Source: a virus | Lineage: Duplodnaviria > Heunggongvirae > Uroviricota > Caudoviricetes | IMG/VR virus record: IMGVR_UViG_3300036790_000265 | Span: 1-64,000 of that record | DNA length: 64,000 bases | Strand: one strand, 5' to 3' | In this document: piece after piece, positions 32,801 to 57,183 of the stretch | Layout of the letters: each line of letters opens with the position of its first letter | Numbering within the stretch: the first letter of the stretch is position 1 | Program-made: the position numbers and the translations under genes | The notes under the pieces: model-generated | The model's database searches: none | The model's input: only the letters and a program-made list of their open reading frames with translations | Told to the model about the DNA's origin: nothing

Positions 32801-32857
32801 ATCGTGGGCGAACCTGCGACGGCGAGCGGCCGGCCGGTGCTCAGCAGTTCGCGTCAT
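29801..32857 (-). CDS. C5 DNA cytosine methyltransferase, intein-containing, large multi-TRD variable region
   Basis: Motif I DLFSGFGGLTRG; motif IV region DLLVAGVSCVNHSQA (SC in place of PC); motif VI LILVECT; motif VIII GVPQSRNRWFGVF; RxLxxxExxxMLG...FD..FP; C-terminal GNGVTPQVGQWIG (motif X). Confidence 0.8.
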   Translation of the reverse strand: MTRTAEHRPAARRRRFAHDDLIAVDLFSGFGGLTRGIEMAGFTTIMAANHNAYKVEVHEANHPHAEHWIADLVDPDSSDYHSARDLPAADLLVAGVSCVNHSQANTIKAYEQRLSLFDLDDPDFDARVTRSERDRATANCFPAGTIVVARRGMVPIEELAAGDEVLTHRNRWRRVTATMSRRSRVITVKGRGHTALEVTADHQFLTRASELTRRGWVFSGAEDWTAAADLIGHAWQSPTEFPECAVPPAPNGWAYDHHFWWTVGRWLGDGWIRHCSPSGVMVGICCGHAERAELDGMWAAARVHEDPTIIRYELRGSGPFARWLMEHFGELAHGKTIPAWALSMDEEYRKALVEGYLSADGATGLGGRRGSCATVSRKLAIGMKLLLQGLGYRPTLRCRKPEQWTIEGRSGITRPAWILQWMAQQRRTSTIATINGRCVGVVREVIDENRQAQVFDIEVEEDHSFVADGLIVHNCVLHYAERHHPRLILVECTTQIQSWGPAIPGRRKVGDGSTYRWWLKQFTKLNYDYKILYLNSMFFGVPQSRNRWFGVFWDRRLPKPDLEHRPPSWCSRCDQVVEAVWTWRTGIPATGKVCYGEQYDYRCPRCRAEVIPPMSPSLDALDLTNLGTRIGDRAKPLAASTMERAERCRQRAAEFPLVLMPASAVTGPGGHPWQPMTSQTAGVAMTGSVVPAHRHNGDGQHITRPMDTVTTTHEKAALIASTGVIMGAAGHTFERPGSNCRSRGLDQPLWAQTGTNSTGLMTPPIAVAVDNYQGSPRGADEPLPTQGGSETLGLLTARILPNRTNGTSRSVTEPMQTLVGGAGSGGLGVLSSGVVPLRRASAPVGPADPMPAVTASQTLGLLTAGGTIKNNGSIDEAKYRTHPLSDPLGTVVGSAITQGALFSGWFKQNGRSSDATAPHPVSDPFGTLTSRDTTALLTAALRDLPLEDWYFKMLGPHEVGRGCGFDVDFPGYGYKGSFVVWGSARDQVDGYGNGVTPQVGQWIGARLRAILHTPEATA
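31436..32440 (-). mobile_element. intein (about 335 aa) with LAGLIDADG-type homing-endonuclease motifs, inserted between MTase motifs IV and VI
   Basis: Begins ...ATAN|CFPAGTIVVARRG, ends ...FVADGLIVHN|C; internal WLGDGWI and YLSADGATG blocks. Confidence 0.7.
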
Positions 32858-33640: not shown

Positions 33641-33919
33641 TCACTGGGTCGCCGCCGATCCGGCCAGCGCGGCGCGGCCGGCTTCCATCAGTTCGTTGCC
33701 GCGTTTACAACTCGTGGCGTGGAGGATCATGTTGAGCAGGCCGAGTTCGGTGGCGTCCGGGCCGAGGTTGGGCATCGGCGGTGCGGCGCGCATGCCGCGT
33801 AGCTTGCTGCCGACGCCCTTGCGCAGGGTTGAGGCTTCGGCGCCGCACCGGCACCGGATACCAGGGGTGCCGTGCTTGTCGCGGACGATCAGCAGCGGAA
33901 GGACGGTGAAGTCGCTCAC
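33641..33919 (-). CDS. hypothetical protein
   Basis: ORF. Confidence 0.35.
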   Translation of the reverse strand: MSDFTVLPLLIVRDKHGTPGIRCRCGAEASTLRKGVGSKLRGMRAAPPMPNLGPDATELGLLNMILHATSCKRGNELMEAGRAALAGSAATQ

Positions 33920-34410
33920 GGCACCCTCACCGGCCTTGTAGCTGCCGACTTGGCGTGCCGGTCATGCAGCAGGATTGAGCCCGCGCATGCGACGTTCATT
34001 GACTGCGAGACGACCGTCTCGACCTGGGTCAGGTAGTGACACTGGTCGAGTACCGAAACAGGCAGCCCGTGGTCTTCCGCGCCGAGTAGGTAGCACGCCC
34101 GTTCCGGGTGCACGAACGACGCGAGGTGTTCGGCGCGCGGGTCGAGTTCGACGCCGACGAGCGGGCACGACCACGGCAGGTGCGTGACCAGGTCGTCCAA
34201 GTCGGTGAAGTGGAACATCGGGGTGCGCTGCGGGGTGTCGATCGTGTCGCTGGCCTGCCTGGTATAGCGGTGGCCGACCGTGAACACGAACGCGCAGTCG
34301 AACAGGAACGCTGACCGCCACAGCGACCCGACGTTGATCTTGGTCTTCGGATGCCAGATGCCGATCGCGGCGAAGCCCCGGCCAGCTCGGGCGTAGGTGC
34401 GGCGGGTCAC
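33916..34410 (-). CDS. SPOUT-superfamily RNA 2'-O-methyltransferase (SpoU/TrmH/TrmL-like)
   Basis: GFAAIGIWHPKTKINVGSLWRSA (motif 1) and LLGAEDHGLPVSVLDQCHYLTQVETVVSQSMNVACAGSILLHD (motifs 2-3, trefoil-knot SAM site). Confidence 0.7.
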   Translation of the reverse strand: MTRRTYARAGRGFAAIGIWHPKTKINVGSLWRSAFLFDCAFVFTVGHRYTRQASDTIDTPQRTPMFHFTDLDDLVTHLPWSCPLVGVELDPRAEHLASFVHPERACYLLGAEDHGLPVSVLDQCHYLTQVETVVSQSMNVACAGSILLHDRHAKSAATRPVRVP

Positions 34411-37444: not shown

Positions 37445-38040
37445 GATGCCACCTCAGGCCCGGCGGCCGGGAGGGCCAGCAGGTCACCCACGGGGATCGC
37501 GCCGGCCCGCCACGCCTCAGCGACGATCTGCTGAGCCTCGCTGGTGAGCGTGACGGTGGGAGTCGGGTCGTCGGCTTCGGGCAGCTCGATGCCGGGGATG
37601 TCGTCCTTGGTGAGCCGTTCCCCGGCGGCGGTCACGTAGTAGCCGGGTTTCTTCAGCGACTTGATGAGGTCGTCCACCCAGTACGGGTCCGGTTCGCTGC
37701 CGGTCTCCAGTGCCCCGGGCCAGTGCTCGATGAGGTGGACGATCAGCTCGTCCTGGGGGGCGACGATCTTCACGGTGTCGCGCAGCTTCTCCGGGTAGTT
37801 CTTCCTGGTCCAGGCGAGCAGCGCGGCGGGGTCCTTCACGTAGGCGCTTTTCTGCGCAGGCTTGGGCATGGCCACCCAGGCGGCTGTCTTGCCGCCGAAC
37901 TTCACGGCGTGCCGCTCGCCGGATTCCAGTTCCCTGCGGGCGGCCGGGATCATCTCGCTGGTGCGCAGCGCGGCCAGGATCTCGGTGAGCACCTTGGCCA
38001 CGGTGAGCCGCTGCACGAGGCTCAGGGCCGGGGCGGTCAC
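37441..38040 (-). CDS. hypothetical protein
   Basis: ORF. Confidence 0.4.
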   Translation of the reverse strand: MTAPALSLVQRLTVAKVLTEILAALRTSEMIPAARRELESGERHAVKFGGKTAAWVAMPKPAQKSAYVKDPAALLAWTRKNYPEKLRDTVKIVAPQDELIVHLIEHWPGALETGSEPDPYWVDDLIKSLKKPGYYVTAAGERLTKDDIPGIELPEADDPTPTVTLTSEAQQIVAEAWRAGAIPVGDLLALPAAGPEVAS

Positions 38041-39167
38041 GCCACTGCCTCAGCGGTGTCAGCGACACGGGCGAGGATCGCCGCGCGAATCTGGCCCGCC
38101 CGGGTCTCGTCGATGTTCCCGGCCGCGAACTCGGCCTCCAGTTCAGCGATGGCCGCGTCAGCGTCGGCGTGGCATTCGACGCATTCGACCTTGGGTGCCC
38201 ACGGGTCCTCGGGGTCGAGCGGCGCGGGAGCCTCCTGGGCCGCTGCGGCGAGATCGGCGGCCCGGGCCTTGAGCAGTTCCGCGATGGCCAGCGCGGTCTC
38301 GGCGGTGATCTCGCGCGCGTTCCGCTTGGCCGCCGTCTGGCGCCATAGCGCCTGGCCTGCTTCCTCTGTGCCGAAGCACGCCGCGTGTTCCTTCATCGCG
38401 TCCACCCAGGCGGGGTCTTCCTCGATGACCTCGGCGTCCACAGGCGCGCTCGCCGGCTGCTGCCGGGAACTGGACCACGCAGCCTCTTCCACGATCTCGC
38501 CACCGACGACGTTGCCGTCCCCGTCCACTTCGGCGCCCAGTTCCTCGGGCGTGTAGTGCAGGCCGAACAGGGCTTCCTCACAGGCGTCGCGGGCGCACTG
38601 GGTGATGGCGCGGCTCTTGAGCATCGCGGCCGGGTACTTGATCCAGACGTCCTTGCCCAGCAGCTTCGCCATCTCGGCACTGGGGTTGTCGTCAGCGTTC
38701 TTGCGCAGCGTCCAGGTCACCTGGAAGGTGAAGCCGGGGTCGTCGCAGCGGACGATCTGGCAGGTGGCTGACTTACTGTCGCCGAACACGCGGAGCTTGT
38801 GCCCGGCCCGCCGCACCAGCGCGGAGATCAGCCCGGCGCTCGCGGACGGCTTGCCCTCGATCACATGCACGCCGGTCATCGCGGCCATCGGGGCCAGGCG
38901 CAGCATCTCGCCGTACTCCAGCGCCCACAGCACGTTCGCGGGCTGATTGCGGTACTGGGCAGGCAGCAGGCCAGAATCGGCCAGCAGTTCGCAGTACTGG
39001 ATTTTCGCGGGCAGAGATTGCTGCTGACGGACAGCAGGCAGGTTCGGGGCCTCCAGCGCCGCCGCAGCCGCTGCTGCGACCTCGGGGCTCTCGGGAACCG
39101 GGGCGGTGGTGTCGTCGGGGGTTTCGTCCGGCCGAGGATCTGCGTTTGTATCGGCGATGACGGTCAT
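38037..39167 (-). CDS. recT: RecT-family single-strand annealing protein
   Basis: IQYCELLADSGLLPAQYRNQPANVLWALEYGEMLRLAPMAAMTGVHVIEGKPS core. Confidence 0.75.
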   Translation of the reverse strand: MTVIADTNADPRPDETPDDTTAPVPESPEVAAAAAAALEAPNLPAVRQQQSLPAKIQYCELLADSGLLPAQYRNQPANVLWALEYGEMLRLAPMAAMTGVHVIEGKPSASAGLISALVRRAGHKLRVFGDSKSATCQIVRCDDPGFTFQVTWTLRKNADDNPSAEMAKLLGKDVWIKYPAAMLKSRAITQCARDACEEALFGLHYTPEELGAEVDGDGNVVGGEIVEEAAWSSSRQQPASAPVDAEVIEEDPAWVDAMKEHAACFGTEEAGQALWRQTAAKRNAREITAETALAIAELLKARAADLAAAAQEAPAPLDPEDPWAPKVECVECHADADAAIAELEAEFAAGNIDETRAGQIRAAILARVADTAEAVA

Positions 39168-39744: not shown

Positions 39745-39838
39745 CGGGGGTCACCCCACCGGGATTGCGCGAGGACACCTGCGGCGATGATCACAGCCAG
39801 CGCGGCGGCAACGATGACCACCAGGACAGCCGGGGGCA

Positions 39839-40096
39839 TCAGGCGGCGCGCCGGTCGGTATGGCCGATGACGAGCACGATCTGGCACGGGGAGAACACCA
39901 TGGACCCGCGCTGGTGGCCGATGCGGTAGTCGAGAACGGCGTGCGCCGGATCGGCCAGGTGAACGGCCTCGACCTCGACATCGAATGGGTCACGTCCGAC
40001 ACGGCGCTGGTCCACCATGTGGGGCTGGAGGTGAGCGAGCGCGCCAGGCTTCAAGTCGCGGGCGGTGACCCGGCGGCCGGTGATGTAGGTGTTCAT
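39839..40096 (-). CDS. hypothetical protein
   Basis: ORF. Confidence 0.35.
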   Translation of the reverse strand: MNTYITGRRVTARDLKPGALAHLQPHMVDQRRVGRDPFDVEVEAVHLADPAHAVLDYRIGHQRGSMVFSPCQIVLVIGHTDRRAA

Positions 40097-40160
40097 TGAG
40101 CTGGTCTCCCTTCGTGTTACCTTTGGTTCCGGCAGGTCGGGTCTCCCTTCCCTGCCGTCC

Positions 40161-40196
40161 CGCCCCGCCGGTTGCATCGGCGGGGCGAAGCTTTTT
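40161..40196. terminator. GC hairpin (CGCCCCGCCG-n7-CGGCGGGGCG) followed by a T-tract on the plus strand
   Basis: Read directly; lies between the XRE operon and downstream genes. Confidence 0.4.
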
Positions 40197-40366
40197 CAGG
40201 CCGCGTCACTTTCCTTCCGCGAGGCGGCGTCGGTGTTGTGCTGGCGGGCGCGGGCCGCGACCCGTTCGATCTCGTCTCGGGTGAGAGCAGGCGCCGGGTC
40301 AGCGGCTTCGTCAGCGACGCCGGCGGCGAACGCCTGCTCGGCCGTGACGATCCGGTCGGTGCTCAT
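40196..40366 (-). CDS. small protein (56 aa) co-transcribed with the XRE repressor
   Basis: ATGA overlap with the XRE gene stop. Confidence 0.3.
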   Translation of the reverse strand: MSTDRIVTAEQAFAAGVADEAADPAPALTRDEIERVAARARQHNTDAASRKESDAA

Positions 40367-40659
40367 GACTGGCTCGGCACGCTGAGGGGGCGCCGCGCCG
40401 CGCTTCCGTCCCGGCTCGTGCCGGTCAGGGCACCGTGCAGAGATGTGCCGGGCTTGACGATGGCCACCAGCGGGACATCCAACTCGCGGGCGATCGCGGT
40501 GAGCGTCTCCAGACCTGCGCCGCGGTTTCCGTTCTCGATGTTCTTGAGTGACGACGATGCGATGCCGACCCGCGCGGCGAACTCGTCCGGCTTCAGGTCG
40601 CGGTCCCGGCGCAGGCGCCTGATCTCGGCACCGTCCTGGTACCCACTGCTGACATCCAC
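40363..40659 (-). CDS. XRE-family HTH repressor (CI-like)
   Basis: EIRRLRRDRDLKPDEFAARVGIASSSLKNIENGNRGAGLETLTAIARELDVPL. Confidence 0.8.
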   Translation of the reverse strand: MDVSSGYQDGAEIRRLRRDRDLKPDEFAARVGIASSSLKNIENGNRGAGLETLTAIARELDVPLVAIVKPGTSLHGALTGTSRDGSAARRPLSVPSQS

Positions 40660-40885
40660 AAGGACACTCTAGGATTCACGAGGAATCAGCGTCAAGTCCT
40701 CTGGAGCATCTTTTGCCACATCAGAGACCTAGTGAATCATCCTGAACCTTAGTAGACGCACGAGAAACCCTTATGGTTTACCGGCTGACTTGACAGATTC
40801 GGGCGTGCTGGGAGACTCTAGGCCGGGAGCGGATTCCCCCTGAATCCCTAGGCCGCCGCCTGGGCCACACGGAGGCACACCCCTG
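40660..40885. promoter_or_regulatory. divergent promoter/operator region; GGATTC-n5-GAATCC inverted repeats at 40672-40687 and 40831-40847, CTAGG repeats
   Basis: Read directly; AT-richer than surroundings. Confidence 0.55.
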
Positions 40886-41308
40886 ATGGCAGCAGACCCG
40901 CGCTGGGTGCACCTGGGTACCCTCCTGGTACGCAGGCGCGTCGAGATGAACCCCAGGTTCCGCAACCGGCGCACCTTCGCAGCCGAGCGCAAGATCGAGT
41001 ACCGCTACGTCAGCGACATCGAGCGCGCAGCCCGCTCCAACTTCGAGGCACAGACCATCGCCCAGTTCGAGATCGCCTACGACCTGCCCGCGGGCGCGAT
41101 TGAGCGCGCCATCGCCACGGGAGTACTTGTCACCGGCGATGACGTGCCCGAGCCGGTGCCAGCCCCAGAACCAGAGAACACGGACCTGGCGTATGTGCGG
41201 AAGTCGCTCCCGCATCTAGAGCCGGCGCACCTCGCCGTCCTGGCCGGCCTCGTGAAGTCCTGGATCGAGCCGATTCCACCGGCCGTGGACCAGCGGCACA
41301 CCGCCTAA
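40886..41308 (+). CDS. HTH DNA-binding protein (Cro/antirepressor-side gene of the switch)
   Basis: RRTFAAERKIEYRYVSDIERAARSNFEAQTIAQFEIAYDLPAGAI. Confidence 0.55.
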   Translation: MAADPRWVHLGTLLVRRRVEMNPRFRNRRTFAAERKIEYRYVSDIERAARSNFEAQTIAQFEIAYDLPAGAIERAIATGVLVTGDDVPEPVPAPEPENTDLAYVRKSLPHLEPAHLAVLAGLVKSWIEPIPPAVDQRHTA

Positions 41309-41949
41309 CTGGCGCAGACCCTCACCCGGATTCCAAGTAGTCCGATCTTCACGATGCACTGCACCTGATGCCCGGGTGGTGTCGTCCCCGGCGGCGTCGT
41401 GACGGGCTGTGTCGGCGTGATCGTGACCGGCGGCGGTGAAGGCCCCCGAGAGGACGACGGGCCGGACGGGAGCGCCAGGCGCGTGTGAGCGGCCAGGACC
41501 GCCGCAGGGCTGCCAGCCTCATGCTGCGGCGTGGTCCTGGCCGCGACCTCTCGCCGCGGACGATCCGTGCGTGGTGGTGGAGGAACGGTCGCTGTTGTGG
41601 TCGCGGCGGGAGGGGTGCTCTGCGGCTCCCCCGCGGGGTGCGGGACCGCAGACGCTACGAGGGCCAGCCCGGCCGCGGTGCCTGCTGCAACGACAGCTGA
41701 GGCGGCGGCGGGGATGCCGGGATGCCGGTGCGCCGCTTCAGCGGCCCCAGCAGCGAACAACGCGGCGGGCACGAGTACCAGATCGCGGCGGTCAGTGCCC
41801 AGCAGGCGCTTGGCTTCGCGGACGGCTTCGGTTCTTTCGTGCCGCGATAGACCTCGCCAGATGAGGAAGACGGGCTGTCCGTCCTCCATTTTCACGACGA
41901 CGGGGCCTTCGGGGGGAAGGTCGTCAACGTAACGGTAACCGCGGATCAT
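41305..41949 (-). CDS. membrane protein with Pro/Thr-rich C terminus
   Basis: Two TM segments, PPPVTITPTQPVTTPPGTTPPG. Confidence 0.45.
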   Translation of the reverse strand: MIRGYRYVDDLPPEGPVVVKMEDGQPVFLIWRGLSRHERTEAVREAKRLLGTDRRDLVLVPAALFAAGAAEAAHRHPGIPAAASAVVAAGTAAGLALVASAVPHPAGEPQSTPPAATTTATVPPPPRTDRPRREVAARTTPQHEAGSPAAVLAAHTRLALPSGPSSSRGPSPPPVTITPTQPVTTPPGTTPPGHQVQCIVKIGLLGIRVRVCAS

Positions 41950-42266
41950 GAGAGATTCCGGGCGATGTGCTGCCATGCCTCCCCAGCGGACCTATTCCCG
42001 ATTGCGTCACGGGAAATAACAACGACTGCGCCGCCGGGCAGGCGGATCGCCTGGAATGCGCGCGTGCAGGAATGATAGGCGGCGACAAACTGGGGCGGGG
42101 GGTCCGACCATTGCGGGCGCCCGAGGTTCGCGCATGCGGCGTTGAGAGCTGCCTGGGCGGCGGCTGCGCGGGCCTCGGCTTGGTCCGCGCGGTCGCGTTC
42201 CTGCTTGATCTGGGCACGCAGGCCGCCGCTGTCGATGTCTCTCACTGCACGCTCAGGGGTTGTCAT
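41946..42266 (-). CDS. hypothetical protein
   Basis: ORF. Confidence 0.4.
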   Translation of the reverse strand: MTTPERAVRDIDSGGLRAQIKQERDRADQAEARAAAAQAALNAACANLGRPQWSDPPPQFVAAYHSCTRAFQAIRLPGGAVVVISRDAIGNRSAGEAWQHIARNLS

Positions 42267-42717
42267 CTCCGCCTTCCCTAGCCGCTGGCTGACTCGGGGT
42301 GTGGCGCAGGATCGCTGTCCAGGCGGGTGGGCAGGATGGTGCGTCGCGAAAGCGATAATAGGTCCGCCGTTTCCCGTTTTGCAACATGCCGTTTCCCGCG
42401 AGGTCAGCGAAAGTTTTGCACGTCATTCCATGTAAACCGCTGCCCGTCGGTGGGCGTCTCATGCGTCATCATCAGGACATTCTTGTCCATGCGAATTAAC
42501 TGCGTTCTGGGGCAAACAGCCAACTTTACCTTCACGTTACTTTCACCACCTATTTACGGACGCAGGTAAATAACCGGCTGTGGTTCCTCGTGCGCAGCCG
42601 GTCCTCTCCACTGGCAGCCCCCAGTTGCCGGGGACGCTGCCAGACAGTCATGTCCCGGCAGCCCCGCAGGCTACTCCTGCCCGGCAACCTACTCCCGGCG
42701 CAGAGGGGGTGTCCAGG

Positions 42718-43029
42718 GTGACCGGGTTATCCCCGGTGATCGGGCTGATCCAGGTACTCGCTAAGAACTGGTGGATCATGGAAATCGACCGGTTCGGGCC
42801 CGAGCCCGCCTACGTGCAGATAGCCAACTGGCTCAGGCAGCGGATCACCAGCGGCGATCTGCCACCAGGCACCCCCATCCCCAGCAAGAAGCAGATACGC
42901 CAGGAACTCGGCGTCGCCGGCCAGACAGTGGACAAAGCTGTCCAGATACTCAAAGACGAAGGCCTCGTGGCCACCGCCCGCGGCCTCGGCATCTACGTCA
43001 TCGACACCAAGAAGCCCCGCCAGCCATAA
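42718..43029 (+). CDS. GntR-family winged-HTH regulator (short, HTH-only)
   Basis: PAYVQIANWLRQRITSGDLPPGTPIPSKKQIRQELGVAGQTVDKAVQILKDEGLVATARGLGIYV. Confidence 0.75.
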   Translation: MTGLSPVIGLIQVLAKNWWIMEIDRFGPEPAYVQIANWLRQRITSGDLPPGTPIPSKKQIRQELGVAGQTVDKAVQILKDEGLVATARGLGIYVIDTKKPRQP

Positions 43030-43068
43030 GCGCTGGCGGGGCCATGCGGCACCAGACGTGCGGTAACC

Positions 43069-43752
43069 CTACCCGGCGGTATTCGCGTCCTCCCACTTAC
43101 CGCTCAGCGGGTCCTGCACGATCTCACACGACGCAATGTTGTAGCTCCCGGTCGCCGTCGCGGCCGAGACCAGCTTGCCGTCCACCAGGATCCGGCAGTG
43201 CACCGCCCCGCCGCCATTCAACTGGGCCTCGATGGAGTAGTCGTCGGCGTGCTCGAGCTTCCCGGTCACCTTCATCGGCACGTGGCCGGTCAGCGATGAT
43301 CCCTGCGCGCCGTAGGTCACGTCCGCGGCCGAGCCGGTGACTTCGTAGGTGACCGTGCTCGGCACCGCGGCTGCGGCGCTGGCCGGGTGGCTCGCGGGCG
43401 CACTCGACGGTGTGCCCGCGGCGGGAGTGGTGGCCGCGGCGGGGGTTTTCTTGCCGCTAGCCGATCCCGCAACCGCGGCAATGATGAAGACCACGACCGC
43501 AGCGGCGCAGATCAGCACGATGTTCCGCGTGGTGTGCTTACGCTTTGGCGGCCTCGGCGGCGGCTGGTATCGCTGTGGCGGCAGGTAGCCAGGATCCTGC
43601 GGCGGCGGGTAGCCCTGGCCAGGAGGCTTGTACTGCTGCTGGGGTGGCGGCTGGCGCCCCAGCATATGTGCAGGCGGCGGCCGGTCGCCTTGCTCCCAGG
43701 GTTGCGGAGGGCGGCCGGAACGCTGTGGAGGTAATCCGTACTGATCGCTCAT
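43069..43752 (-). CDS. Pro-rich membrane-anchored protein (single TM, extracytoplasmic domain)
   Basis: PPQ repeats, TM IVLICAAAVVVFIIAAVAG. Confidence 0.5.
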   Translation of the reverse strand: MSDQYGLPPQRSGRPPQPWEQGDRPPPAHMLGRQPPPQQQYKPPGQGYPPPQDPGYLPPQRYQPPPRPPKRKHTTRNIVLICAAAVVVFIIAAVAGSASGKKTPAAATTPAAGTPSSAPASHPASAAAAVPSTVTYEVTGSAADVTYGAQGSSLTGHVPMKVTGKLEHADDYSIEAQLNGGGAVHCRILVDGKLVSAATATGSYNIASCEIVQDPLSGKWEDANTAG

Positions 43753-43824
43753 GCCCGGTAAGACGCACCACCGGGCTCCGTGGTTTACCCTGGCCGTGGT
43801 TTCCCCGCAGCCCAGCGAACTGGC

Positions 43825-44673
43825 TCATATGATCAGATCCCGCGCGGCCCTGGTCAGCAGTTCCCGCGCACCGGCGCCCGTTTCGGCCGCGGCGAGCAGA
43901 TCGTCCATGATGTTGCCGTACCGCGAAGCCTCGGCGAGTTCCGGCTTCACCTCGGACGTGTAGGTCTCCATGATCACGAGGTCGTCCACCATCAGGAACC
44001 CGAGGATGGGCACCACGGCTAGTTCCCGGCCCGGTGGGATGACCCCGAACGTCACGTTGGCCAGCCCCGTCACCGTGAGCAGCCGGTCGATCTGCGCAGA
44101 CATCACTGGCACCGGGCACGTCAGGTAGCGGACCGCGGCCTCGCAGATCACGAACTCGAACGTCTTACCCGAGTCGTACAGCACTTCCTGCCGGCGCGCC
44201 CGCGCGGCGACCGCTTCCTCAACACCATCCGGGCTTTCCCCGAACCGGCGTGCCGATATCTCCATCTGGGAGCGGGCGTAGTCCGGGGTCTGGAGCAGGC
44301 CCGGGACTAGCAGCGTCTCGAAGTTACGGATGCGGGATGCCCCGCGCACGATCGTGTCGTACTCGGCTTGGAGCGCGGCGTGGCCGCTCCGCAGCCGCAG
44401 CCGCCATTCCCGGTACACGGACTGTGCCTCGTCCAGCAGCGCCAGCAGGTCAGCACGTTCGTCTGGCTGGCCGCAGGCAGTGACCCAGCCTGTGATGTCG
44501 GCCTCGGTGGGCATCTGGCGGCCGTTCTCCAGCTTGGGCACCTTGCTGCGGGGCCACCCCAGCTGGGCGGCAAGTTCGACACCAGTGAGCCCGGCGGTCT
44601 TGCGGATGCGCACCAGGCGCTCCGCGAGGCCGCCGGGCTGATTGAGCCATACTCCAGTCGGCTGCACGGTCAT
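43825..44673 (-). CDS. XRE-family HTH regulator with DUF5753-type C-terminal domain
   Basis: LVRIRKTAGLTGVELAAQLGWPRSKVPKLENGRQ; actinomycete Scr1-like architecture. Confidence 0.7.
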   Translation of the reverse strand: MTVQPTGVWLNQPGGLAERLVRIRKTAGLTGVELAAQLGWPRSKVPKLENGRQMPTEADITGWVTACGQPDERADLLALLDEAQSVYREWRLRLRSGHAALQAEYDTIVRGASRIRNFETLLVPGLLQTPDYARSQMEISARRFGESPDGVEEAVAARARRQEVLYDSGKTFEFVICEAAVRYLTCPVPVMSAQIDRLLTVTGLANVTFGVIPPGRELAVVPILGFLMVDDLVIMETYTSEVKPELAEASRYGNIMDDLLAAAETGAGARELLTRAARDLII

Positions 44674-44682
44674 CCCTGTTGA

Positions 44683-45222
44683 TCAGGCGGCGGCTGACGC
44701 CCCCGCCGGCGTGGCGTAACGGACTGCCAGGTCCCGCCATCGCTGGTACCGGGCAACCTCACCCGGCTCATTGATCAGCGTTTTACCATCGATCTCACCT
44801 GTGGCCGTGAACCGCATCACGATCACGGCCGCGTCGTCGAGCAGCCACCAGTCATGCTCCAGCGGCAACCCGGCCTCCCGCGCGCGGGAGCGTGCCAGGT
44901 AGCTGATCCGCTCCCCCGCCTCGGCGTGCCAGGGATCGGCTGCCATAAGCCACCGCTGGTAGTCGCTCGGCGGCTCGGCGAGGATGCGGACACGGCTCAT
45001 CACGCGGCCTTCGCGGGTGAGCTGGGCCACCTGGTCGAGCCACGGCCGCCACCAGTCCACCTCGAGCGGGTTGACTGTCCCGGTGGCGAGGAAGCTTTCG
45101 AAGTCGGCCCGTTCGTAGTCCAGGGCGTAGGCGTCGAGAGTTTCAAGCCGGAACGCTGAGCGGCTGTACCCGGCCAGGAGCCGGTTGAACTCTTCTTCGG
45201 TGACCGGGGTGCCGGACGTCAC
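44683..45222 (-). CDS. hypothetical protein
   Basis: GTG start in a GTGA overlap. Confidence 0.4.
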   Translation of the reverse strand: MTSGTPVTEEEFNRLLAGYSRSAFRLETLDAYALDYERADFESFLATGTVNPLEVDWWRPWLDQVAQLTREGRVMSRVRILAEPPSDYQRWLMAADPWHAEAGERISYLARSRAREAGLPLEHDWWLLDDAAVIVMRFTATGEIDGKTLINEPGEVARYQRWRDLAVRYATPAGASAAA

Positions 45223-45422
45223 GAGGTCAGGCCGTCGATCACGTCGGCGGGCACCCAAACACCGTCCTCGTCGTTGCCGAGGTCGCGCAGCTGGGCTCGT
45301 ACCTCGTCGGTCAGGCGCTTGCCTTGGATGACGTAGCCGCCTTCGGCGCTGGTCACCTTGTAGCGGGCTGGGCAATTGCCGGTCGCCGAGCTTGCCGTCT
45401 TCCACTGGAACTGGATCTTCAT
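45219..45422 (-). CDS. DUF397-like small protein
   Basis: FQWKTASSATGNCPARYKV resembles the DUF397 WRKSSYS..GNCVEV motif; GGAGGAG RBS. Confidence 0.4.
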   Translation of the reverse strand: MKIQFQWKTASSATGNCPARYKVTSAEGGYVIQGKRLTDEVRAQLRDLGNDEDGVWVPADVIDGLTS

Positions 45423-45480
45423 CGCTGGACTCCTCCGATGTTCTCGGGTGCCTGGTTCCGTTCTCGATTGTTCTTCATAA

Positions 45481-45553
45481 CCCCCCACCGCGTCCAGCCT
45501 GCGGTGGGGGGCCGGAACCTGGCTATCTCAGTGTAGAACATTGGCGAATGTTC
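45481..45553. promoter_or_regulatory. 11-bp perfect hairpin CCCCCCACCGC-n9-GCGGTGGGGGG plus palindrome GAACATTggcgAATGTTC upstream of the xis-like gene
   Basis: Read directly. Confidence 0.5.
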
Positions 45554-45582
45554 TTGACTGTTCTCCACCACGGACTTACGGT

Positions 45583-45840
45583 ATGTCCAGATCGGCAGAA
45601 CCGCCGAGAACACCCAATACGGCGAGATGGGCAGAAGCCTTGGACACTCCCCAGCAGGTCGAGGACGAGCTGCTGCCGCCTGCTGCGGTAGCCAAACGCT
45701 TCGGCGTGGATCCGCGCACGCTGCGCGGCTGGGCGGCGGCAGGGAAGATCAACGCCCGCCGCACGCTCGGCGGCCACCGCCGCTACCGGGCATCCGAGGT
45801 CAGCGCGTTGCTCGCCGCTACAGAAGCGGCCACATCATGA
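45583..45840 (+). CDS. xis: excisionase-family (MerR-like) HTH protein
   Basis: LLPPAAVAKRFGVDPRTLRGWAAAGKINARRTLGGHRRYRASEV. Confidence 0.7.
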   Translation: MSRSAEPPRTPNTARWAEALDTPQQVEDELLPPAAVAKRFGVDPRTLRGWAAAGKINARRTLGGHRRYRASEVSALLAATEAATS

Positions 45841-45924
45841 CTGGCCGCGCAAACAACAGCGGCCCAGGTGTGTCACCACCTGAGCCGCTCACAACCAGAA
45901 CCCCTGCTCGAAAGGGACTAGCCG

Positions 45925-46119
45925 ATGGCAACGGTAGCAATTCACCGCCCCCCAGCCAAGCATCATGTCGCCCGTGTGACCGCCGTCATGCTCCGGCGCC
46001 GGTTCAGGGAGGGCGACCGAGCCCCCTGCCACCGTACGGAACGGCTGGCCGACGACCCGCGGGAGCCCGCGAAGGTGTTCTGCCCCGAGGGCGGCGAACT
46101 GTACCTGCGGACGGCCTGA
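45925..46119 (+). CDS. small hypothetical protein
   Basis: AAAGGGA RBS. Confidence 0.35.
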   Translation: MATVAIHRPPAKHHVARVTAVMLRRRFREGDRAPCHRTERLADDPREPAKVFCPEGGELYLRTA

Positions 46120-46276
46120 TTACCCGAACCTCCCGATCGTCCCTGCCGGGCACCCGGCAGGGACCCGGAAGCCGTCAGGCGCGCGGACGCTGGGGCTTCG
46201 CCCCCGTCGCCCTGGCCGTGGCATCCACTCCCCGGGGTGCCTGCCGCGCGCCTGACGGCCGAAGGAGAACCGCCTG

Positions 46277-46810
46277 ATGGCCGGCAAGAACGGCGCAGGG
46301 AAGGCCCTGTTCGCAGCGTTCATCGTCGCCGGACTGGCCTCCGGAGCGCACGCTGGCGCAAGCACCGGCAGCCACAACGGAGGCGATCCCGACTCGATGG
46401 CGGCCACTCCCGCTGGTGCCGCCAACGCGACGAGCGCCGTCGCCTACGCCAAAGCGCAACTCGGTTGCCCGTACACGTGGGGTGGCACCGGGCCGTGCTC
46501 GGCCGGGTACGACTGCTCGGGCCTGGTGCAGCAGGCATGGGCGGCAGCTGGTGTGAGCATCGAGCGCACCGCTGACGAGCAGTGGAACTCGCTGCGTCAC
46601 ATCCCGGCCAGTCAGCGCGCGGTGGGGATGCTCGTGTTCGCGCCTGGGGCGGACGGTACATGGTCTGCACCGGGCCACGTCGGGATGCTTCTCGGCCGCT
46701 GGAGCGTGATCGAGGCTTACGCCACCGGCTACCCGATCAAGATCGTCTCGCTCAGCACCTTCGGCGCGAAAGCAGGCGGGATCATCGGCTACGCGGAGGT
46801 ACAGCAATGA
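46277..46810 (+). CDS. secreted NlpC/P60-family peptidoglycan endopeptidase
   Basis: Signal peptide; YAKAQLGCPYTWGGTGPCSAGYDCSGLVQQAWAAAGV...GHVGM. Confidence 0.85.
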   Translation: MAGKNGAGKALFAAFIVAGLASGAHAGASTGSHNGGDPDSMAATPAGAANATSAVAYAKAQLGCPYTWGGTGPCSAGYDCSGLVQQAWAAAGVSIERTADEQWNSLRHIPASQRAVGMLVFAPGADGTWSAPGHVGMLLGRWSVIEAYATGYPIKIVSLSTFGAKAGGIIGYAEVQQ

Positions 46811-47250
46811 CCCGCCTGCGCGGGGCCGCCGCCGCGGCCGTCGTCGGGATCACGCTGGCCGCAGTGTCGCAAAGCCACGGCGGCCACCAGGTCTTGACGC
46901 ACGTCGCCGCGGCCATGCAGCAACCGGGCACCAGTTCCACCAGCCCGGCCGCGAACAAGGCTCTCGCGGACCGGATGGCGGCCGCGGCCGGGTGGGACAG
47001 CCGGGAGATCGGCTGCCTGAACGAGGTCTGGCAGCGCGAGTCCGGGTTCCGGGTCACGGTGTGGAACTACCAGGGCGCGGACGCTTACGGCATCCCGCAG
47101 GCGAACCCCGCCGACAAGATGGCCAGCGCCGGCCCGGACTGGCGCACTGATCCCGCGACCCAGATCAAGTGGGGCCTCGGCTACATCAAGGATCTCTACG
47201 GCTCGCCCTGCGGGGCCTGGTCGCACGAAAAATCGCACGGCTGGTATTAG
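46807..47250 (+). CDS. secreted lysozyme-like / transglycosylase-like protein
   Basis: Signal peptide; CLNEVWQRESGFRVTVWNYQGADAYGIPQANP. Confidence 0.5.
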   Translation: MTRLRGAAAAAVVGITLAAVSQSHGGHQVLTHVAAAMQQPGTSSTSPAANKALADRMAAAAGWDSREIGCLNEVWQRESGFRVTVWNYQGADAYGIPQANPADKMASAGPDWRTDPATQIKWGLGYIKDLYGSPCGAWSHEKSHGWY

Positions 47251-47287
47251 GCCAGCCGGCACCAACCAAGGAAGGGAACCACCCGCC

Positions 47288-47539
47288 ATGTCTGGCACCA
47301 CCACCGCAGTTGCACAAAAGCTGCATCCGGTCGTCCTGACCGCGCACAAGGTCACGCTCACCGCGCTGGCCCCGGCTAAGCACGCCGTGACCAACGCGTG
47401 GGCCGACCAGCCTGGCCACCCGCACATGACCCCGAACGAGGGGGCCGTTCTCGCCGGCGTGATCCTGCTCCTCATCGTGATCGGGGTCATCTTCGCCATC
47501 TCCACCGCCATCTCCACCGCCATCGACTCTCGCCGCTGA
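47288..47539 (+). CDS. small membrane protein
   Basis: TM LAGVILLLIVIGVIFAI. Confidence 0.45.
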   Translation: MSGTTTAVAQKLHPVVLTAHKVTLTALAPAKHAVTNAWADQPGHPHMTPNEGAVLAGVILLLIVIGVIFAISTAISTAIDSRR

Positions 47540-47557
47540 TCTTCGAAGGAACACCTG

Positions 47558-47884
47558 ATGGCTACCAGTGCTGCCGACCGCGCGGCCAACCGCGCCGAGT
47601 CGGTCGAGGTTGCCGTCAGGAGGCTCCTGGCCGAGGGCAACCCGCACGCGGCGCTGAACCTGGCGGTCGGGACATTCCAATCCGAGGCCGCCAAGGTCCG
47701 CCGCCGCCGCCCAGCCGACGCGGCGCTCATCGACGCCGAGCTGGCCGGGTCGCTCCTCGCGCTCGCGGCCCAACTCCACACCTACAAGCCGACCCGGCCA
47801 GCCGGACGCTCTCGGGTACCGGGCCCGGCTGACCTGCTCGCGATGCTCGACTCAAGCCTGGGAAAGGGGCAGACTCATGGGTGA
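47558..47884 (+). CDS. hypothetical protein
   Basis: GAAGGAA RBS. Confidence 0.45.
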   Translation: MATSAADRAANRAESVEVAVRRLLAEGNPHAALNLAVGTFQSEAAKVRRRRPADAALIDAELAGSLLALAAQLHTYKPTRPAGRSRVPGPADLLAMLDSSLGKGQTHG

Positions 47885-48371
47885 CCAGCTACCAGCCCTG
47901 CTGAGTTTCCTTCACGATGGGGAGACCTCTCCTGAGCCTGCCGCCCCGGCCGCGCCGGCCACAGACCCGGCGCCGCAGGCCACGCCCGCGGTGGCGTTGC
48001 GGGGTGGCCAGTTGAGCACGGGCGAGCAGGCGCGGGCGATCATGGAGCTGGCGTGGCGTAGCAGTCGCCGCCGCTGGCTGGACACCGTACGCCGGCAGGG
48101 CGGCGTCGTGAACTGGCTGATGTCCACTCAGCCGCCGAGCGTCCTCGACCAATGCGAGTACGCGCAGTCGCGGGCATGGGTTCCAGCCGGCCACGAAGGC
48201 AAGTTCGCCGAGAAAGAGGGCGTGATCTTCCACGCCACGATCGGCAGGGGCGGTGTCGCGCTCGGCAACGCCATCTCGGCTATCTGCTCGCGCCAAACCT
48301 CCTTCTGGATCGCGTTCTTCGCGTTCCTCCTCCTCGCGGTGACTGTGACCGCACTCATTCTGTTCGCCTGA
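47877..48371 (+). CDS. membrane-anchored hypothetical protein
   Basis: C-terminal TM. Confidence 0.45.
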   Translation: MGDQLPALLSFLHDGETSPEPAAPAAPATDPAPQATPAVALRGGQLSTGEQARAIMELAWRSSRRRWLDTVRRQGGVVNWLMSTQPPSVLDQCEYAQSRAWVPAGHEGKFAEKEGVIFHATIGRGGVALGNAISAICSRQTSFWIAFFAFLLLAVTVTALILFA

Positions 48372-48402
48372 CCAGCGGACCACCTCATCGTCTTAAGGAC
48401 TC

Positions 48403-49047
48403 GTGTTTGCCATGACCCCTGTGGCTTTTCTCGGCATAGGCGCAGCCGCCTTCGGCATCTGGACGTGGGCGTACCAGAAGATGCCCCGGTTCACCTGCGT
48501 GATGCTGCTCCTGGCCGGGTTCCTGCTCACGATCGGCGTTCCTGTCCTCCTGGACGCGCTCGCCCGCGCAATCGCCGGTAACGCCGGCACCATCGTTCTC
48601 GGCATCGTTGATCTGTGCGGCCTGTGGAGTTTCTGGCACGAGGTCGTCCGCAGGCACCTGCACCACCGGATCCGGACCCCGGCTCTGTCGCTGGTGCTCG
48701 GGGTGGCGCTCGTGTTGTCGTGGGCCAGCCTGACCAGCCTGCTCAGCGAGGCCGTGCACAGCCCCGTCCAGGCGGGGAGCGCGCTCAGCCACGCCACCAC
48801 TGCGGTACGTTCCGGCCACGCCGCCGCAGCGGTAACCCCGGACAAGCAAATGATCGTCCTGGTCGCCGCGGCTGTGTTGCTGGCTCTGCTGGTGATCGGC
48901 GGGTTCCGGGCCGAACGTGGCGGCCGTGGCCGCAGTTCCGCCCGCGGCGGTGCTAGCCGGGGCGGCAGCCCGGTCGCGAGCAGGATCCCGGTCGCTCCGA
49001 GCGGTGGCCGCCGGCCCGCCGCGCTGCCCGGGGGGAAGCGCCGGTAG
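48403..49047 (+). CDS. polytopic membrane protein
   Basis: 4-5 TM segments. Confidence 0.5.
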   Translation: MFAMTPVAFLGIGAAAFGIWTWAYQKMPRFTCVMLLLAGFLLTIGVPVLLDALARAIAGNAGTIVLGIVDLCGLWSFWHEVVRRHLHHRIRTPALSLVLGVALVLSWASLTSLLSEAVHSPVQAGSALSHATTAVRSGHAAAAVTPDKQMIVLVAAAVLLALLVIGGFRAERGGRGRSSARGGASRGGSPVASRIPVAPSGGRRPAALPGGKRR

Positions 49048-51183
49048 ATGAACAGCCGCTGGCACGACCACGACAACGATCAAGACGACGATCAGGCTGA
49101 GCCGCTGCCGCCGCCGCGGAGCGAGCTTCGGGCGCTCGTCGACCAGCACCGCGCCATCCTCACCCCGTTCGCGTGGATGGCCGCGGCCGAGCTGGTCGCG
49201 CTGACCGCCTGGGGGGTCCTGCACGGACTCGGCAGCCTCCTCCAGGTGATCATCGCTGCCGTGGTCGCGCGGCTGATCATCTGGCGGCGGACCCGGAGCC
49301 GCAGGAAGGGACACGGCAGCCGGACTCTCGTCTGGGCTCTCGGGTCGGCGTGGATGCTGATCGCGACGGTGGTCGGCCCGAGCCTGGTCGGCCAGCTCGT
49401 CCTGCTCGTCCTGCTCGTGTTCGGTGGCTCTATCGCGTCGGCGAAGCACTGGCTCAACAACCGGGTGCACCACACCGGACCGCGCACCCTCCGCGGCGAC
49501 ACCATCGACGACGAGGTCCCACCCGCTGACGATGACGTACCCGGTCGGCCTGTGCTGCATGTGGTCGCCGGGGAGCCGTACTCGAACCCGGTCGTACCCG
49601 CCGCCGGACCTGTACCCGCGAGCGCACCTGCGGGTGCACCCGGGACCGTACCCGCACCCGAACCTCCCTCGGGTGCGGGTACGGTCCAGACGGCCGGGTA
49701 CACCGCACCCGGGACGGGTGCGCTCAAGCCAGGTACGGCCCCGAAAGCACGCACATCGGCGTCGGACAGCATCCGCGAAGCGATCCAGACCGTACTCGAC
49801 GACTTCCAGGTGTCCGCCGACGTGTCGGGGTACGTCCGCGGCCCGGCGGTCACCCGGTACGAGATCGTCCCGGCTCCGGGGGTCAAGGTCGAGAAGGTCA
49901 CCGCCTTGTCCAAAAACATCTCGCTCGCGGTGAAAAGCGGCGCCGTGCGGATCCTGTCCCCGATCCCGGGGAAGTCCGCGATCGGGATCGAGATCCCCAA
50001 CACTGACCGTGAAGTAGTCAGCCTCGGTGACATCCTCCGCTCTCCCCTCGCGGCCTCTGACCATCACCCGCTGCTGGTCGGGCTAGGCAAAGACGTCGAA
50101 GGGCACGTGGTGGTGGCCAACCTCGGGAAGATGCCGCACATCCTGATCGCCGGCGCGACCGGCGCGGGCAAGTCCACCTGCATAAACACGTTGATCGTTT
50201 CCCTGCTGGCCAGGGCCACACCTGAGGAGTTGCGGCTGATCCTGATCGACCCGAAGCGGGTCGAGCTGGCCGCCTACCAGGGTGTGCCGCACCTGCTGAC
50301 CCCGATCGTCACCAACCCGAAGAAGGCCGCTGAGGCGCTGGAGTGGGTAGTCGGCGAGATGGAACGCCGCTACGACGCGATGGCCAGGCACGGGGTACGG
50401 AACATCACCGAATTCAACGTCAACGCGGGCAAGGGCATCCTGGTCGACCGCGAGACGCACAAGCCGGTCAGCCCGTACCCGTATCTGCTGGTGATCGTGG
50501 ACGAACTCGCCGACCTGATGATGGTCGCGCCGCGGGACGTGGAGGATTCGGTCGTCCGGATCACCCAGCTCGCCCGGGCGGCCGGCATCCACCTGGTGCT
50601 GGCCACCCAGCGGCCCAGCGTGGACGTGGTGACCGGCCTGATCAAGGCGAACGTGCCGTCGCGGCTGGCGTTCACCACTTCCAGCCTGGCGGACTCCCGC
50701 GTGATCCTGGACCAGCCCGGCGCGGAGAAACTTGGCGGCCAGGGCGACGCGCTGTTCCTTCCGATGGGTGCCAGCCGGGCGATCCGGCTGCAAGGCGCGT
50801 TCGTGAGCGACGACGAGATCGCGGCGGTTGTGCGCCAGTGCATCGCCCATGCGCCCCGGATGCCGCAACTCGAGCTCGTACCCGAGCCGGTACCAGTCAG
50901 CGGCCCGGCTGAGGCGCCGGTGGATGACACCGAGGTGGAGTTGCTGGCCACGGCGGCCGAACTGATCATCAGTACGCAGTTCGGTTCGACGTCGATGTTG
51001 CAACGGAAACTGCGGGTCGGGTTCGCGAAGGCTGGGCGGCTGATGGACCTGCTGGAGTCGCGGGGGATCGTCGGCCCGAGCGAAGGCTCCAAAGCTCGCG
51101 ACGTACTCAAACTGGCCGAGGAAGCTGCCGAGGTGGCTGATCGCATCCGGGCCGGCGAACCCGAGGTCAGGAGCGCAGGATGA
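49048..51183 (+). CDS. FtsK/SpoIIIE-family DNA translocase (Streptomyces TraB-like)
   Basis: N-terminal TMs; [19 protein letters not shown]; [12 protein letters not shown]; [15 protein letters not shown]; C-terminal gamma wHTH. Confidence 0.9.
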
Positions 51184-51485
51184 CCCCGGCAGAGCTGATG
51201 GCCGCTGGCGTGCTGGCCGTGTTCATCCTGGTGGCCGGCTCGCGCCGGGTCCGGCACAGCGGCGCGGGCGCTGTCGCGTTCCTCGGCGCGGTCGCCTTGG
51301 TCGCGGTCGAGATCGCGAAGCACCAGCAGCCGGCCGCGGCCCGGCCGGTCGTCGTGACCCGCACAGTCGTCGAACACACCACGGCGAGTCACCCGGTGCT
51401 GTCGGGCTGGCCGCTGGTGGTGGTCATCGGCGTGGCCCTGGTGGTCGCGCTCGTCATCATGCTCAACATTCGATCAGGAGAATAG
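51180..51485 (+). CDS. membrane protein
   Basis: ATGA overlap with the FtsK-like gene; 3 TM. Confidence 0.5.
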
Positions 51486-51496
51486 GCAAGATCATC

Positions 51497-53215: not shown

Positions 53216-53255
53216 TGGGAGCGGGTGTGGTGTCGAATACGTTTGCGACGACACG

Positions 53256-57166: not shown

Positions 57167-57183
57167 GGGCACCTCCTCGGGGG

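Follow-up and report, generated by a model that had tools for sequence, protein, structure and literature searches.

The window analyzed here comprises 64,000 nt (positions 1 to 64,000 of IMG/VR record IMGVR_UViG_3300036790_000265) and is one part of a 99,872-bp contig. Its GC content of 68.2% is typical of actinobacteria, and the element is read as a temperate-phage-like one of a high-GC actinobacterium. Within the window, two helix-turn-helix (HTH) regulator genes, one encoding a 98-aa XRE-family protein and the other a 140-aa protein, diverge from a short spacer that carries two predicted promoters (P_L leftward, P_R rightward), two predicted operators (O1 and O2) and a conserved bipartite motif. 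The XRE gene is followed on its strand by a 56-aa gene and by two GC-rich hairpins. The coordinates of these and all other features are collected in Table 1. A preliminary description of this DNA had listed the open reading frames (ORFs), the spacer, the repeats, the CTAGG boxes and the hairpin, and all of them were found where it had placed them. The region is a real but fairly ordinary phage-style switch.

The related loci used for comparison, designated by L numbers, are metagenomic, metagenome-assembled genome and IMG/VR sequences. L009 is an IMG/VR viral contig, L005 is a Logan contig identical to the window sequence, and L026 is a shorter contig with the sequence of L025. The window forms a close subfamily with L002, L017, L018 and L025, and a set of more distant loci is labeled here the LDPRY subfamily after a conserved LDPRY motif. 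Related loci were sought with a 12-sequence subset of the 37-sequence alignment of the 140-aa family; recognition helices and operator half-sites were compared over about 15 loci. A blastn search of positions 39800-41400 against 50,697 phage records returned zero matches, and a megablast search of positions 25000-49000 against plasmids matched cytosine methyltransferase fragments alone. An Rfam scan of positions 39800-42800 gave nothing above threshold; a sub-threshold gabT match (E 0.098; 27 bits against a cutoff of 45) was treated as chance.

The 98-aa protein matches Pfam HTH_3 (PF01381) with E=2.7e-10 and 40.6 bits against a gathering cutoff of 23. Further Pfam matches are to HTH_31 and HTH_19, so that HTH families only are represented, and its PHROG matches are transcriptional regulator and repressor families. 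Homologues of this XRE protein are encoded divergently from the 140-aa family in most related loci. The window protein is also 38% identical over 58 aa to gp37 of Mycobacterium phage ThulaThula, a small HTH protein whose gene diverges from that phage's repressor-position gene. Its own gene is probably the first of a leftward early operon and, because it heads an operon that includes genes for RecT, an exonuclease and a helicase, the protein is taken to be Cro-like by position. The C-terminus of the window protein is -SQS, and several XRE partners in the related loci end in -AA (RAA, TAA, GAA), reminiscent of degradation tags of the ssrA type.

The 140-aa protein matches no Pfam or PHROG family, and a search of its family profile against PDB sequences returned nothing at E<=1; only fold comparison gave matches. 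A word-indexed search with the protein alone recovered one relative besides itself, a three-sequence profile recovered 42, and an exhaustive profile search of the family recovered 928 cluster representatives at E<=1e-3 (423 at E<=1e-10). The AlphaFold2 model built from the 37-sequence alignment has a mean predicted local distance difference test (pLDDT) score of 87, with values of 97-98 across residues 11-80, and consists of an N-terminal five-helix domain (about residues 1-80), a Pro-rich linker and two C-terminal helices. The top PDB matches of this model in Foldseek are all XRE or controller-protein HTH domains, with target-normalized template modeling (TM) scores of 0.65-0.71 and weak E values (E>=0.035); they include C.Esp1396I, Rhodococcus and M. 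smegmatis XRE proteins and ClgR. Fold matches among viral models are actinophage HTH and 'immunity repressor' proteins. As modeled, the N-terminal domain is of the XRE type. The second gene had already been called an HTH gene in the preliminary description, and the fold prediction agrees with that call, which sequence profiles could not have shown.

Profile comparison with hhalign connects the 140-aa family to ThulaThula gp36 (98% probability, E 2.5e-13) and to gp43 of Mycobacterium phage LilSpotty, an annotated 'immunity repressor' (88%, E 3.3e-6), with a weak match to gp45 of Gordonia phage Kita (32%). The similarity to gp36 and gp43 lies in the N-terminal HTH of the 140-aa protein. Neither Peptidase_S24 nor any other Pfam domain was found in the 140-aa protein, and two short helices make up the C-terminal part of its model. 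Its last residues are -HTA, and -xTA is conserved in six of eight close relatives (HTA, ETA, QTA, GTA; window, L002, L017, L018, L024 and L025). This tail may recall an ssrA-like tag, although the resemblance is only suggestive.

P_L was identified by a consensus scan (9/12) as a near-consensus promoter, with the GTG start of the XRE gene (40659) 6 nt after its -10. The layout of TTGAC(G/A), 17-18 nt, TAnnnT, 6-7 nt and start codon recurs in 10 related loci whose spacer sequences differ. Because this geometry is conserved up to the start codon in 10 relatives, the XRE mRNA should be leaderless, a prediction with strong comparative support. P_R was missed by the consensus scan because its -10 is weak. 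The pattern of TTGAC, 16-17 nt and NANNCT is nevertheless found in more than 12 related loci (GAGACT, CAGACT, CACACT, CAGGCT and CACGCT as -10 forms), and a GGAAGG or GGAGG Shine-Dalgarno sequence is kept in the relatives of the 140-aa gene. When the five members of the close subfamily are aligned, no variation is seen at the start codons, at the -35 and -10 regions of either promoter or in the bipartite motif GTAAAC-N17-CGTCTA, while the operator columns vary. Among LDPRY loci L003, L006 and L010-L015, the P_R leader keeps an (A/T)TTCC-N3-5-GGAAGG inverted repeat that includes the Shine-Dalgarno sequence of the 140-aa-family gene, and these loci also have GATTCCGYCTGA after the -35 box of each promoter. 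The window subfamily has neither the leader inverted repeat nor GATTCCGYCTGA.

The spacer contains two 17-bp repeats, one at each of these promoters. O1 (GGATTCACGAGGAATCA) fills all but one of the 18 nt that separate the P_L -35 from its -10. O2 (GGATTCCCCCTGAATCC) comes shortly after the P_R -10 and spans roughly +7 to +23 relative to the transcription start predicted for P_R near 40824. In the 64 kb, the pattern GGATTC-N5-GAATCC with at most one mismatch occurs twice, against 0.07 occurrences expected from shuffles, and both copies are in the spacer, 159 bp apart. The spacer also has six copies of GAWTC (0.17 expected per 226 bp) and four of CTAG (0.14 expected per 226 bp), each density being a unique maximum in the window. 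It might be argued that the repeats are non-regulatory, as chance dyads or promoter by-products in an AT-richer spacer, and generic 6-N5-6 dyads with at most one mismatch are indeed common (562 in the window, about two per 226 bp), while GANTC is itself palindromic and inflates apparent symmetry. Since generic dyads are common, the signal is the shared half-site and not the presence of a dyad. A non-regulatory origin is very improbable given the pattern-specific expectation, the two density maxima and the occurrence in relatives of different, internally matched repeats at equivalent promoter-relative positions. The repeats exceed chance and are operator-like.

The CTAG copies are CTAGG at 40669, 40818 and 40848 and CTAGT at 40729. 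The preliminary description had treated these CTAGG boxes as separate elements, a view that is not supported: two CTAG copies abut -10 hexamers, and three of the four (40669, 40729 and 40848) lengthen half-sites to CTAG(G)GAWTC. The isolated extended half-site CCTAGTGAATC, one of the GAWTC and CTAG copies of the spacer, fits the CTAGGAWTC half-site form of O1, O2, L010 and L022 and is possibly a third, weak operator half. The extended half-site is also present in L010 (CTAGGAATC) and in L022 (TAGGAGT). O2 was also considered as an RNA hairpin and rejected as such (stability z=+0.65 against shuffles), and it is read as a DNA site.

Relatives always carry a repeat pair at the O1 position, with half-sites that are lineage-specific. 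The window has GGATTC-N5-GAATCA at O1 and GGATTC-N5-GAATCC at O2, and the corresponding sites of L017 are TGATTC-N5-GAATCA and GAATTC-N5-GAATCC. L018 has TGAGTC-N5-GGCTCA at O1 and TGAGCC-N5-GGCTCA at O2, with a third copy over the -10, and L002 has a single GAGTG half-site at O1 and GAGTG/CACTC dyads (ATGAGTG-N5-CACTCAT) at O2. The half-sites of O1 and O2 thus change jointly among heteroimmune relatives and are matched within each close relative, and matched, lineage-specific half-sites of this kind are, as read from sequence, the signature of heteroimmune operators. The divergent XRE and 140-aa genes are adjacent in L002, L006, L009, L010, L012, L013, L017, L018, L024, L025 and L027, and over 15 related loci, some of them from temperate actinophages that have been isolated, keep both the gene pair and its promoter geometry. 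In L003/L004 and L011, an insert of about 2.3-2.6 kb separates the two regulator genes. The earlier proposal of a divergent two-HTH switch with operator-like repeats is therefore borne out by both the chance statistics and the conservation in relatives. Confidence in a two-regulator switch with real operators is higher than confidence in the full assignment of CI and Cro roles given below.

The 56-aa gene is translationally coupled to the XRE gene. Its product belongs to no Pfam or PHROG family, and a 55-aa homologue is encoded at the equivalent place in L002. The tandem hairpins that follow have a minimum free energy of -43.8 kcal/mol (z=-3.8), the hairpin at 40161-40187 having 12 pairs of which 10 are G-C. 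A T-run follows the hairpins on the plus strand only, leaving no U-tract on the transcribed strand, and a consensus scan detected no promoter-like site downstream of them, where same-strand genes go on. L002, L027, L003 and L024 also have hairpins in the corresponding gap, with sequences unrelated to one another. The preliminary description had the operon end at the hairpin; on the evidence of the missing U-tract, the lack of a downstream promoter-like site and the continuing genes, the structure is attenuator-like. It is proposed to be an attenuator, partial terminator or stability element inside the operon, between the immediate-early genes and the rest. The XRE gene heads a nearly unbroken minus-strand run of roughly 34 kb that extends down to about 6.7 kb and includes a RecT-like annealing protein, a DnaQ-type exonuclease and a helicase.

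The roles of the two regulators are suggested by comparison with phages. In ThulaThula, Kita and LilSpotty, the repressor-position gene lies on the integrase side and diverges from a small HTH gene that precedes an antirepressor and excise. LilSpotty, M. abscessus prophages and many Gordonia phages have gp36 homologues that carry the label 'immunity repressor', and in cluster P phages the immunity repressor adjoins the integrase (PMC4472890, PMC5764923). Gene 070 of Thermobifida phage P1312 (KT021004) was the sole match of the window protein in the 50,697 phage records (39% over 85 aa). It diverges from the 75-aa XRE gene 071, which stands at the head of an exonuclease VIII and DnaQ-like operon, and points toward a serine integrase. 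P1312 behaved as lytic in the study that isolated it (PMC4569894). Because of this homology and synteny with actinophage immunity cassettes, the 140-aa protein is read as CI-like and the XRE protein as Cro-like. The favored interpretation, to which a probability of about 0.6 is assigned, is a phage-type immunity switch in which the 140-aa XRE-fold protein would be a CI-like repressor acting at O1 and O2 and the small, leaderless XRE protein would be Cro-like.

The preliminary description had assigned the roles the other way, with the XRE protein as a CI-like repressor binding both dyads, the XRE and 56-aa genes as an operon stopping at the hairpin, and the 140-aa protein as Cro-like or antirepressor-like. 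Several observations agree with that arrangement. The XRE protein alone of the pair has a canonical HTH_3 domain, several of its PHROG matches are named 'transcriptional repressor', and the strong tandem hairpin after the 56-aa gene keeps its position in relatives. Among LDPRY loci, the perfect dyads near P_R differ in step with the recognition helix of the XRE protein; L003 and L011, whose XRE helices are identical, both carry GTTTC-N5-GAAAC, and in the close subfamily L018 and L002 have HPQSLR and TGAG half-sites in common. The arrangement is nonetheless unlikely, and the roles are most likely reversed. The XRE gene leads a co-oriented RecT, exonuclease and helicase operon with no promoter detected after a hairpin that itself has no U-tract. 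The 140-aa homologue holds the repressor position in ThulaThula, Kita, LilSpotty and P1312, where the small HTH precedes either antirepressor and excise (the first three) or exonuclease VIII and a DnaQ-like gene (P1312). The 140-aa protein also has the two-domain build expected of a maintenance repressor. Finally, L022 (2832-3420) keeps operator-like repeats, in the form of five TAGGAGT/ACTCCTA half-sites around the promoter of a 140-aa-family gene, without an XRE gene. This L022 gene lies beside housekeeping-type genes (EamA, MarC) and may be a domesticated or remnant repressor.

A mechanism with a CI-like 140-aa protein can be outlined from what was computed here, namely the gene calls and folds, a promoter geometry conserved among loci, and repeats that exceed chance and co-vary in relatives; to these we add, by inference, the pairing of protein and site, the direction of regulation, bistability and the route of induction. 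P_L would drive the XRE gene, the 56-aa gene and then, past the hairpin attenuator, the recombination, replication and DNA-modification genes, and P_R would drive the 140-aa gene only. With the 140-aa protein on O1, inside the P_L spacer, RNA polymerase would be kept off and the entire leftward operon would stay silent; on O2, just downstream of its own promoter, the protein would curb its own production. As a Cro-like antagonist, first made when P_L fires, the XRE protein would shut P_R and perhaps damp P_L, acting through O1 and O2 as in lambda or through sites not yet recognized. The 140-aa protein is proposed as the binder because a maintenance repressor must silence P_L and O1 is the sole repeat inside P_L. 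In addition, GGAnTC-type P_L sites are kept where the 140-aa recognition helix YRxV[S/N]DIE is conserved and the XRE helix varies, and such sites appear to go with the 140-aa family because L022 has them without an XRE gene.

Several points weigh against this interpretation. LDPRY dyads upstream of P_R vary (GATTC, GTTTC, TTTTC and GTGTC cores) where the 140-aa helix is identical, and because that helix is constant there, these dyads would follow the recognition helix of the XRE protein. Members of the close subfamily differ in both proteins and, along with them, in the operators. The evidence from helices and half-sites therefore points both ways, the two proteins may use the same sites, by analogy with lambda, and the assignment of O1 and O2 to the 140-aa protein is not secure. 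O1 can be read either as a dyad (5/6) or as a direct repeat of 10-bp period, GGATTCA/GGAATCA (6/7), so simple binding by a dyad-symmetric dimer is not assured, and L010, L024 and L027 have clear direct repeats at the O1 position. The promoters and the leaderless start are predictions. Neither regulator has an S24 peptidase or another known induction module detectable with Pfam, and the 'immunity repressor' labels of the comparator phages are annotations and not experiments. The two recombinase genes are 38 kb from the 140-aa gene and do not adjoin it, and a comparison of positions 41900-43100 with 1-37000 yielded no att site, the two regions sharing only 13-14-mers. Among about 70 ORFs scanned in the 64-kb window, there is no capsid, portal or tail gene, and the element may be a defective prophage, satellite or hybrid element; its status as a prophage is only inferred.

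The bipartite motif GTAAAC-N17-CGTCTA may represent a further input to the switch. The window has a single copy, some 75 nt upstream of P_L, and one copy each is present in L002 (2331-2359), L017 (348-376), L018 (395-423) and L025 (2881-2909), always in the spacer and on the same strand. Its spacing is invariant and its interior variable among these five heteroimmune relatives. Promoters recognized by extracytoplasmic function (ECF) sigma factors carry AAC in the -35 and CGT in the -10, and the motif may accordingly resemble a second leftward promoter of ECF-sigma type, directed toward the XRE gene and possibly starting near 40746. A literature search on the GTAAAC/CGTCTA motif gave primer noise only, and no sigma factor gene was found among the about 70 window ORFs scanned. 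In a speculative and improbable extension, a host stress ECF sigma factor would serve as a repressor-independent third input, transcribing the Cro-like gene through the repressed P_L and so triggering induction that is free of SOS. Such an input would fit the lack of a peptidase domain in the CI-like protein and its -xTA tail, a possible degron.

The 140-aa gene is not part of a run of genes, and two small minus-strand genes come after it, tail to tail. The first encodes a 223-aa protein with no Pfam or PHROG family, in which a hydrophobic stretch and a Pro/Thr-rich segment can be seen by inspection. The 3' end of this gene is conserved in L002, and a 215-aa gene is at the equivalent place in L026. 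With the two genes overlapping by 4 nt there is no space for a terminator, and transcription from P_R must therefore continue antisense into the 223-aa gene.

The remainder of the window bears on the nature of the element. Nucleic-acid modification and repair genes are unusually concentrated in the leftward operon (6700-37500, minus strand), among them DpdA, which points to 7-deazaguanine DNA modification. The right-hand gene set (42718-54401) recalls actinomycete conjugative elements, and the distant relative L025 has the same GntR, DUF5753 and DUF6879 neighbors, for which reason the right-hand genes may belong to the element; L025 and the window share no DNA similarity that would mark a junction despite these equal neighbors. 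The adjoining C92 amidase-like and GH25 endolysin-like genes may form a lysis cassette. ARAGORN called a tRNA-Gln(ttg) at 60877-60958 on the plus strand, wholly within a minus-strand DUF6424 ORF (60200-61039, a strong match), and the call is either false or an overlapping feature. No convincing terminase was found in the 64 kb: PHROG terminase-family matches are weak and partial and fall in helicase-like and FtsK-like proteins, and a 586-aa ORF with such a weak match was rejected as helicase-like by tblastn.

With these contents, the switch could be a phage-derived cassette on a non-viral element, such as an integrative and conjugative element (ICE), a plasmid or a defense or DNA-modification island, where it would gate the leftward cargo in the manner of ICEBs1 ImmR and make no choice between lysis and lysogeny. 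The missing virion genes, a leftward operon rich in DpdA, RtcB, Thg1-like, SpoU and a 1018-aa methyltransferase-like protein, and the GntR, NlpC/P60, FtsK/SpoIIIE-like and DUF2637 genes on the right, together with the neighbors shared with L025, are all in keeping with this. Against it, phage isolates (P1312, ThulaThula and relatives) have the gene pair, as does an IMG/VR viral contig, the RecT, exonuclease and helicase genes and the GH25 endolysin-like gene are typical phage content, an FtsK-like protein is also encoded by phage P1312 (PMC4569894), and virion genes may sit outside the window in the rest of the contig. A non-viral cassette is accordingly judged quite improbable. The earlier designation of the locus as a lysogeny/lytic decision point is plausible, but the window yielded no virion genes.

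Table 1. Coordinates of the regulatory locus and of other features of the 64,000-nt window
Feature	Position	Strand	Details
Small XRE-family HTH regulator	40363-40659	-	98-aa ORF, GTG start
140-aa two-domain regulator	40886-41308	+	ORF; AlphaFold2 model, Foldseek, hhalign
Spacer between divergent regulators	40660-40885		226 bp, 56.6% GC
P_L, predicted leftward promoter	40666-40695	-	-35 TTGACG 40695-40690, 18 nt, -10 TAGAGT 40671-40666
P_R, predicted rightward promoter of 140-aa gene	40790-40817	+	-35 TTGACA 40790-40795, 16 nt, weak -10 GAGACT 40812-40817
Shine-Dalgarno GGAGG	40871-40875	+	10 nt 5' of ATG of 140-aa gene
Predicted operator O1, GGATTCACGAGGAATCA	40672-40688		1 mismatch to perfect 6-N5-6 dyad
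Predicted operator O2, GGATTCCCCCTGAATCC	40831-40847		Perfect 6-N5-6 dyad; flanked by CTAGG 40848-40852
Isolated extended half-site CCTAGTGAATC	40728-40738		One of 6 GAWTC / 4 CTAG spacer copies
Bipartite GTAAAC-N17-CGTCTA	40753-40781	-	Conserved in close subfamily
56-aa gene	40196-40366	-	ORF, G+C at third codon positions (GC3) 0.82; ATGA overlap with XRE stop
Two tandem GC-rich hairpins	40160-40188, 40130-40157 (40130-40188)	-	99-nt gap after 56-aa gene
223-aa gene	41305-41976	-	Convergent with 140-aa gene; 4-nt tail-to-tail overlap (41305-41308)
First gene after hairpins, 85 aa	39839-40096	-	Gene call in L005
RecT-like annealing protein	38037-39167	-	PHROG match 1e-37
SpoU methylase	33916-34410	-	Leftward operon
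1018-aa methyltransferase-like protein	29801-32857	-	Leftward operon
SPFH protein	24427-25335	-	Leftward operon
DpdA	20483-21304	-	
RtcB RNA ligase	10237-11409	-	Leftward operon
Thg1-like tRNA-His guanylyltransferase	8278-9045	-	Leftward operon
Tyrosine recombinase, 332 aa	2035-3033	+	Adjoins serine recombinase
Serine recombinase, 506 aa	156-1676	+	Far end of leftward operon
GntR regulator	42718-43029		Right of switch
DUF5753-XRE + DUF6879 pair	from 43825		Right of switch
NlpC/P60	46277-46810		Right of switch
FtsK/SpoIIIE-like translocase	49048-51183		Right of switch; alpha and gamma domains
DUF2637	53466-54401		Right of switch
C92 amidase-like gene	55693-56193	-	Adjoins GH25 gene
GH25 endolysin-like gene	56198-57196	-	

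The switch does not overturn current understanding. It does provide a testable anatomy of an actinobacterial immunity region, with promoters, a leaderless start, two operators and an attenuator, all at the level of prediction. It also ties an unannotated family, with 928 representatives and no Pfam model, to the repressor position of actinophage switches, which could help to annotate prophages in Streptomyces-like genomes. The heteroimmune relatives form a natural series for the study of repressor and operator co-evolution, in which the operators change and the promoter scaffold is fixed, and they could supply orthogonal repressor/operator pairs for high-GC hosts.

Among known systems, lambda-type CI/Cro switches share with this locus two divergent HTH regulators, back-to-back promoters in a short spacer and repeated predicted operators that overlap both promoters. 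In both, the early operon opens with the gene of the smaller regulator, and a structured element follows the immediate-early genes, as tR1 follows cro. The window differs in having two full operators and stray half-sites instead of three tandem operators, in having no S24 peptidase or RecA-cleavable domain in either protein, in a CI-like protein of only 140 aa and in a cro-like mRNA that is predicted to be leaderless. A Gram-positive version is the cI/cro region of Staphylococcus aureus phage Phi11, with operators between the divergent repressor genes (PMC3991615).

In fold comparison, the HTH of the 140-aa protein comes closest to the C proteins of restriction-modification systems, such as C.Esp1396I, which bind paired dyads over their own promoter. 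The resemblance is of a kind general to XRE domains (E >= 0.035), a C protein consists of a single domain and has about 80 aa, and no restriction-modification pair is adjacent here, the nearest methyltransferase-like gene being about 8 kb away. In the ICEBs1 ImmR/ImmA module, an XRE repressor is co-transcribed with a metalloprotease anti-repressor, ImmA; no such partner was recognized here, where the genes adjoining the regulators (56, 85, 223 and 106 aa) gave neither a Pfam nor a PHROG match.

Cluster P phages use integration-dependent immunity (PMC5764923, PMC4472890). In these systems, found in mycobacteriophage clusters N and P, attP lies in the repressor gene, the integrase is adjacent and ssrA-like tags are present at the C-termini. 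The 140-aa gene of the window, by contrast, is intact, its 3' end overlaps a convergent gene, the recombinases are 38 kb away and no att repeats were found.

The closest parallels are in actinophages. P1312 genes 070 and 071 share the divergent arrangement and the small XRE gene heading an exonuclease VIII and DnaQ operon, but the operator-like repeats of P1312 are unrelated (GTTGCCTGCT direct repeats), and gene 070 encodes 194 aa with another C-terminus. The SEA-PHAGES-annotated cassettes of ThulaThula (gp36/gp37), LilSpotty (gp43/gp44) and Kita (gp45/gp46) share the homologous N-terminal HTH (gp36, gp43), the gp37-like XRE protein and an identical divergent layout. Their repressors differ in being 240-315 aa long with unrelated C-terminal regions and in lying within about 0.5-2.5 kb of a tyrosine integrase, and their small HTH gene is followed by antirepressor and excise, neither of which was found in the window element. 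With its layout and its homologous regulators, the switch belongs with these actinophage immunity cassettes.

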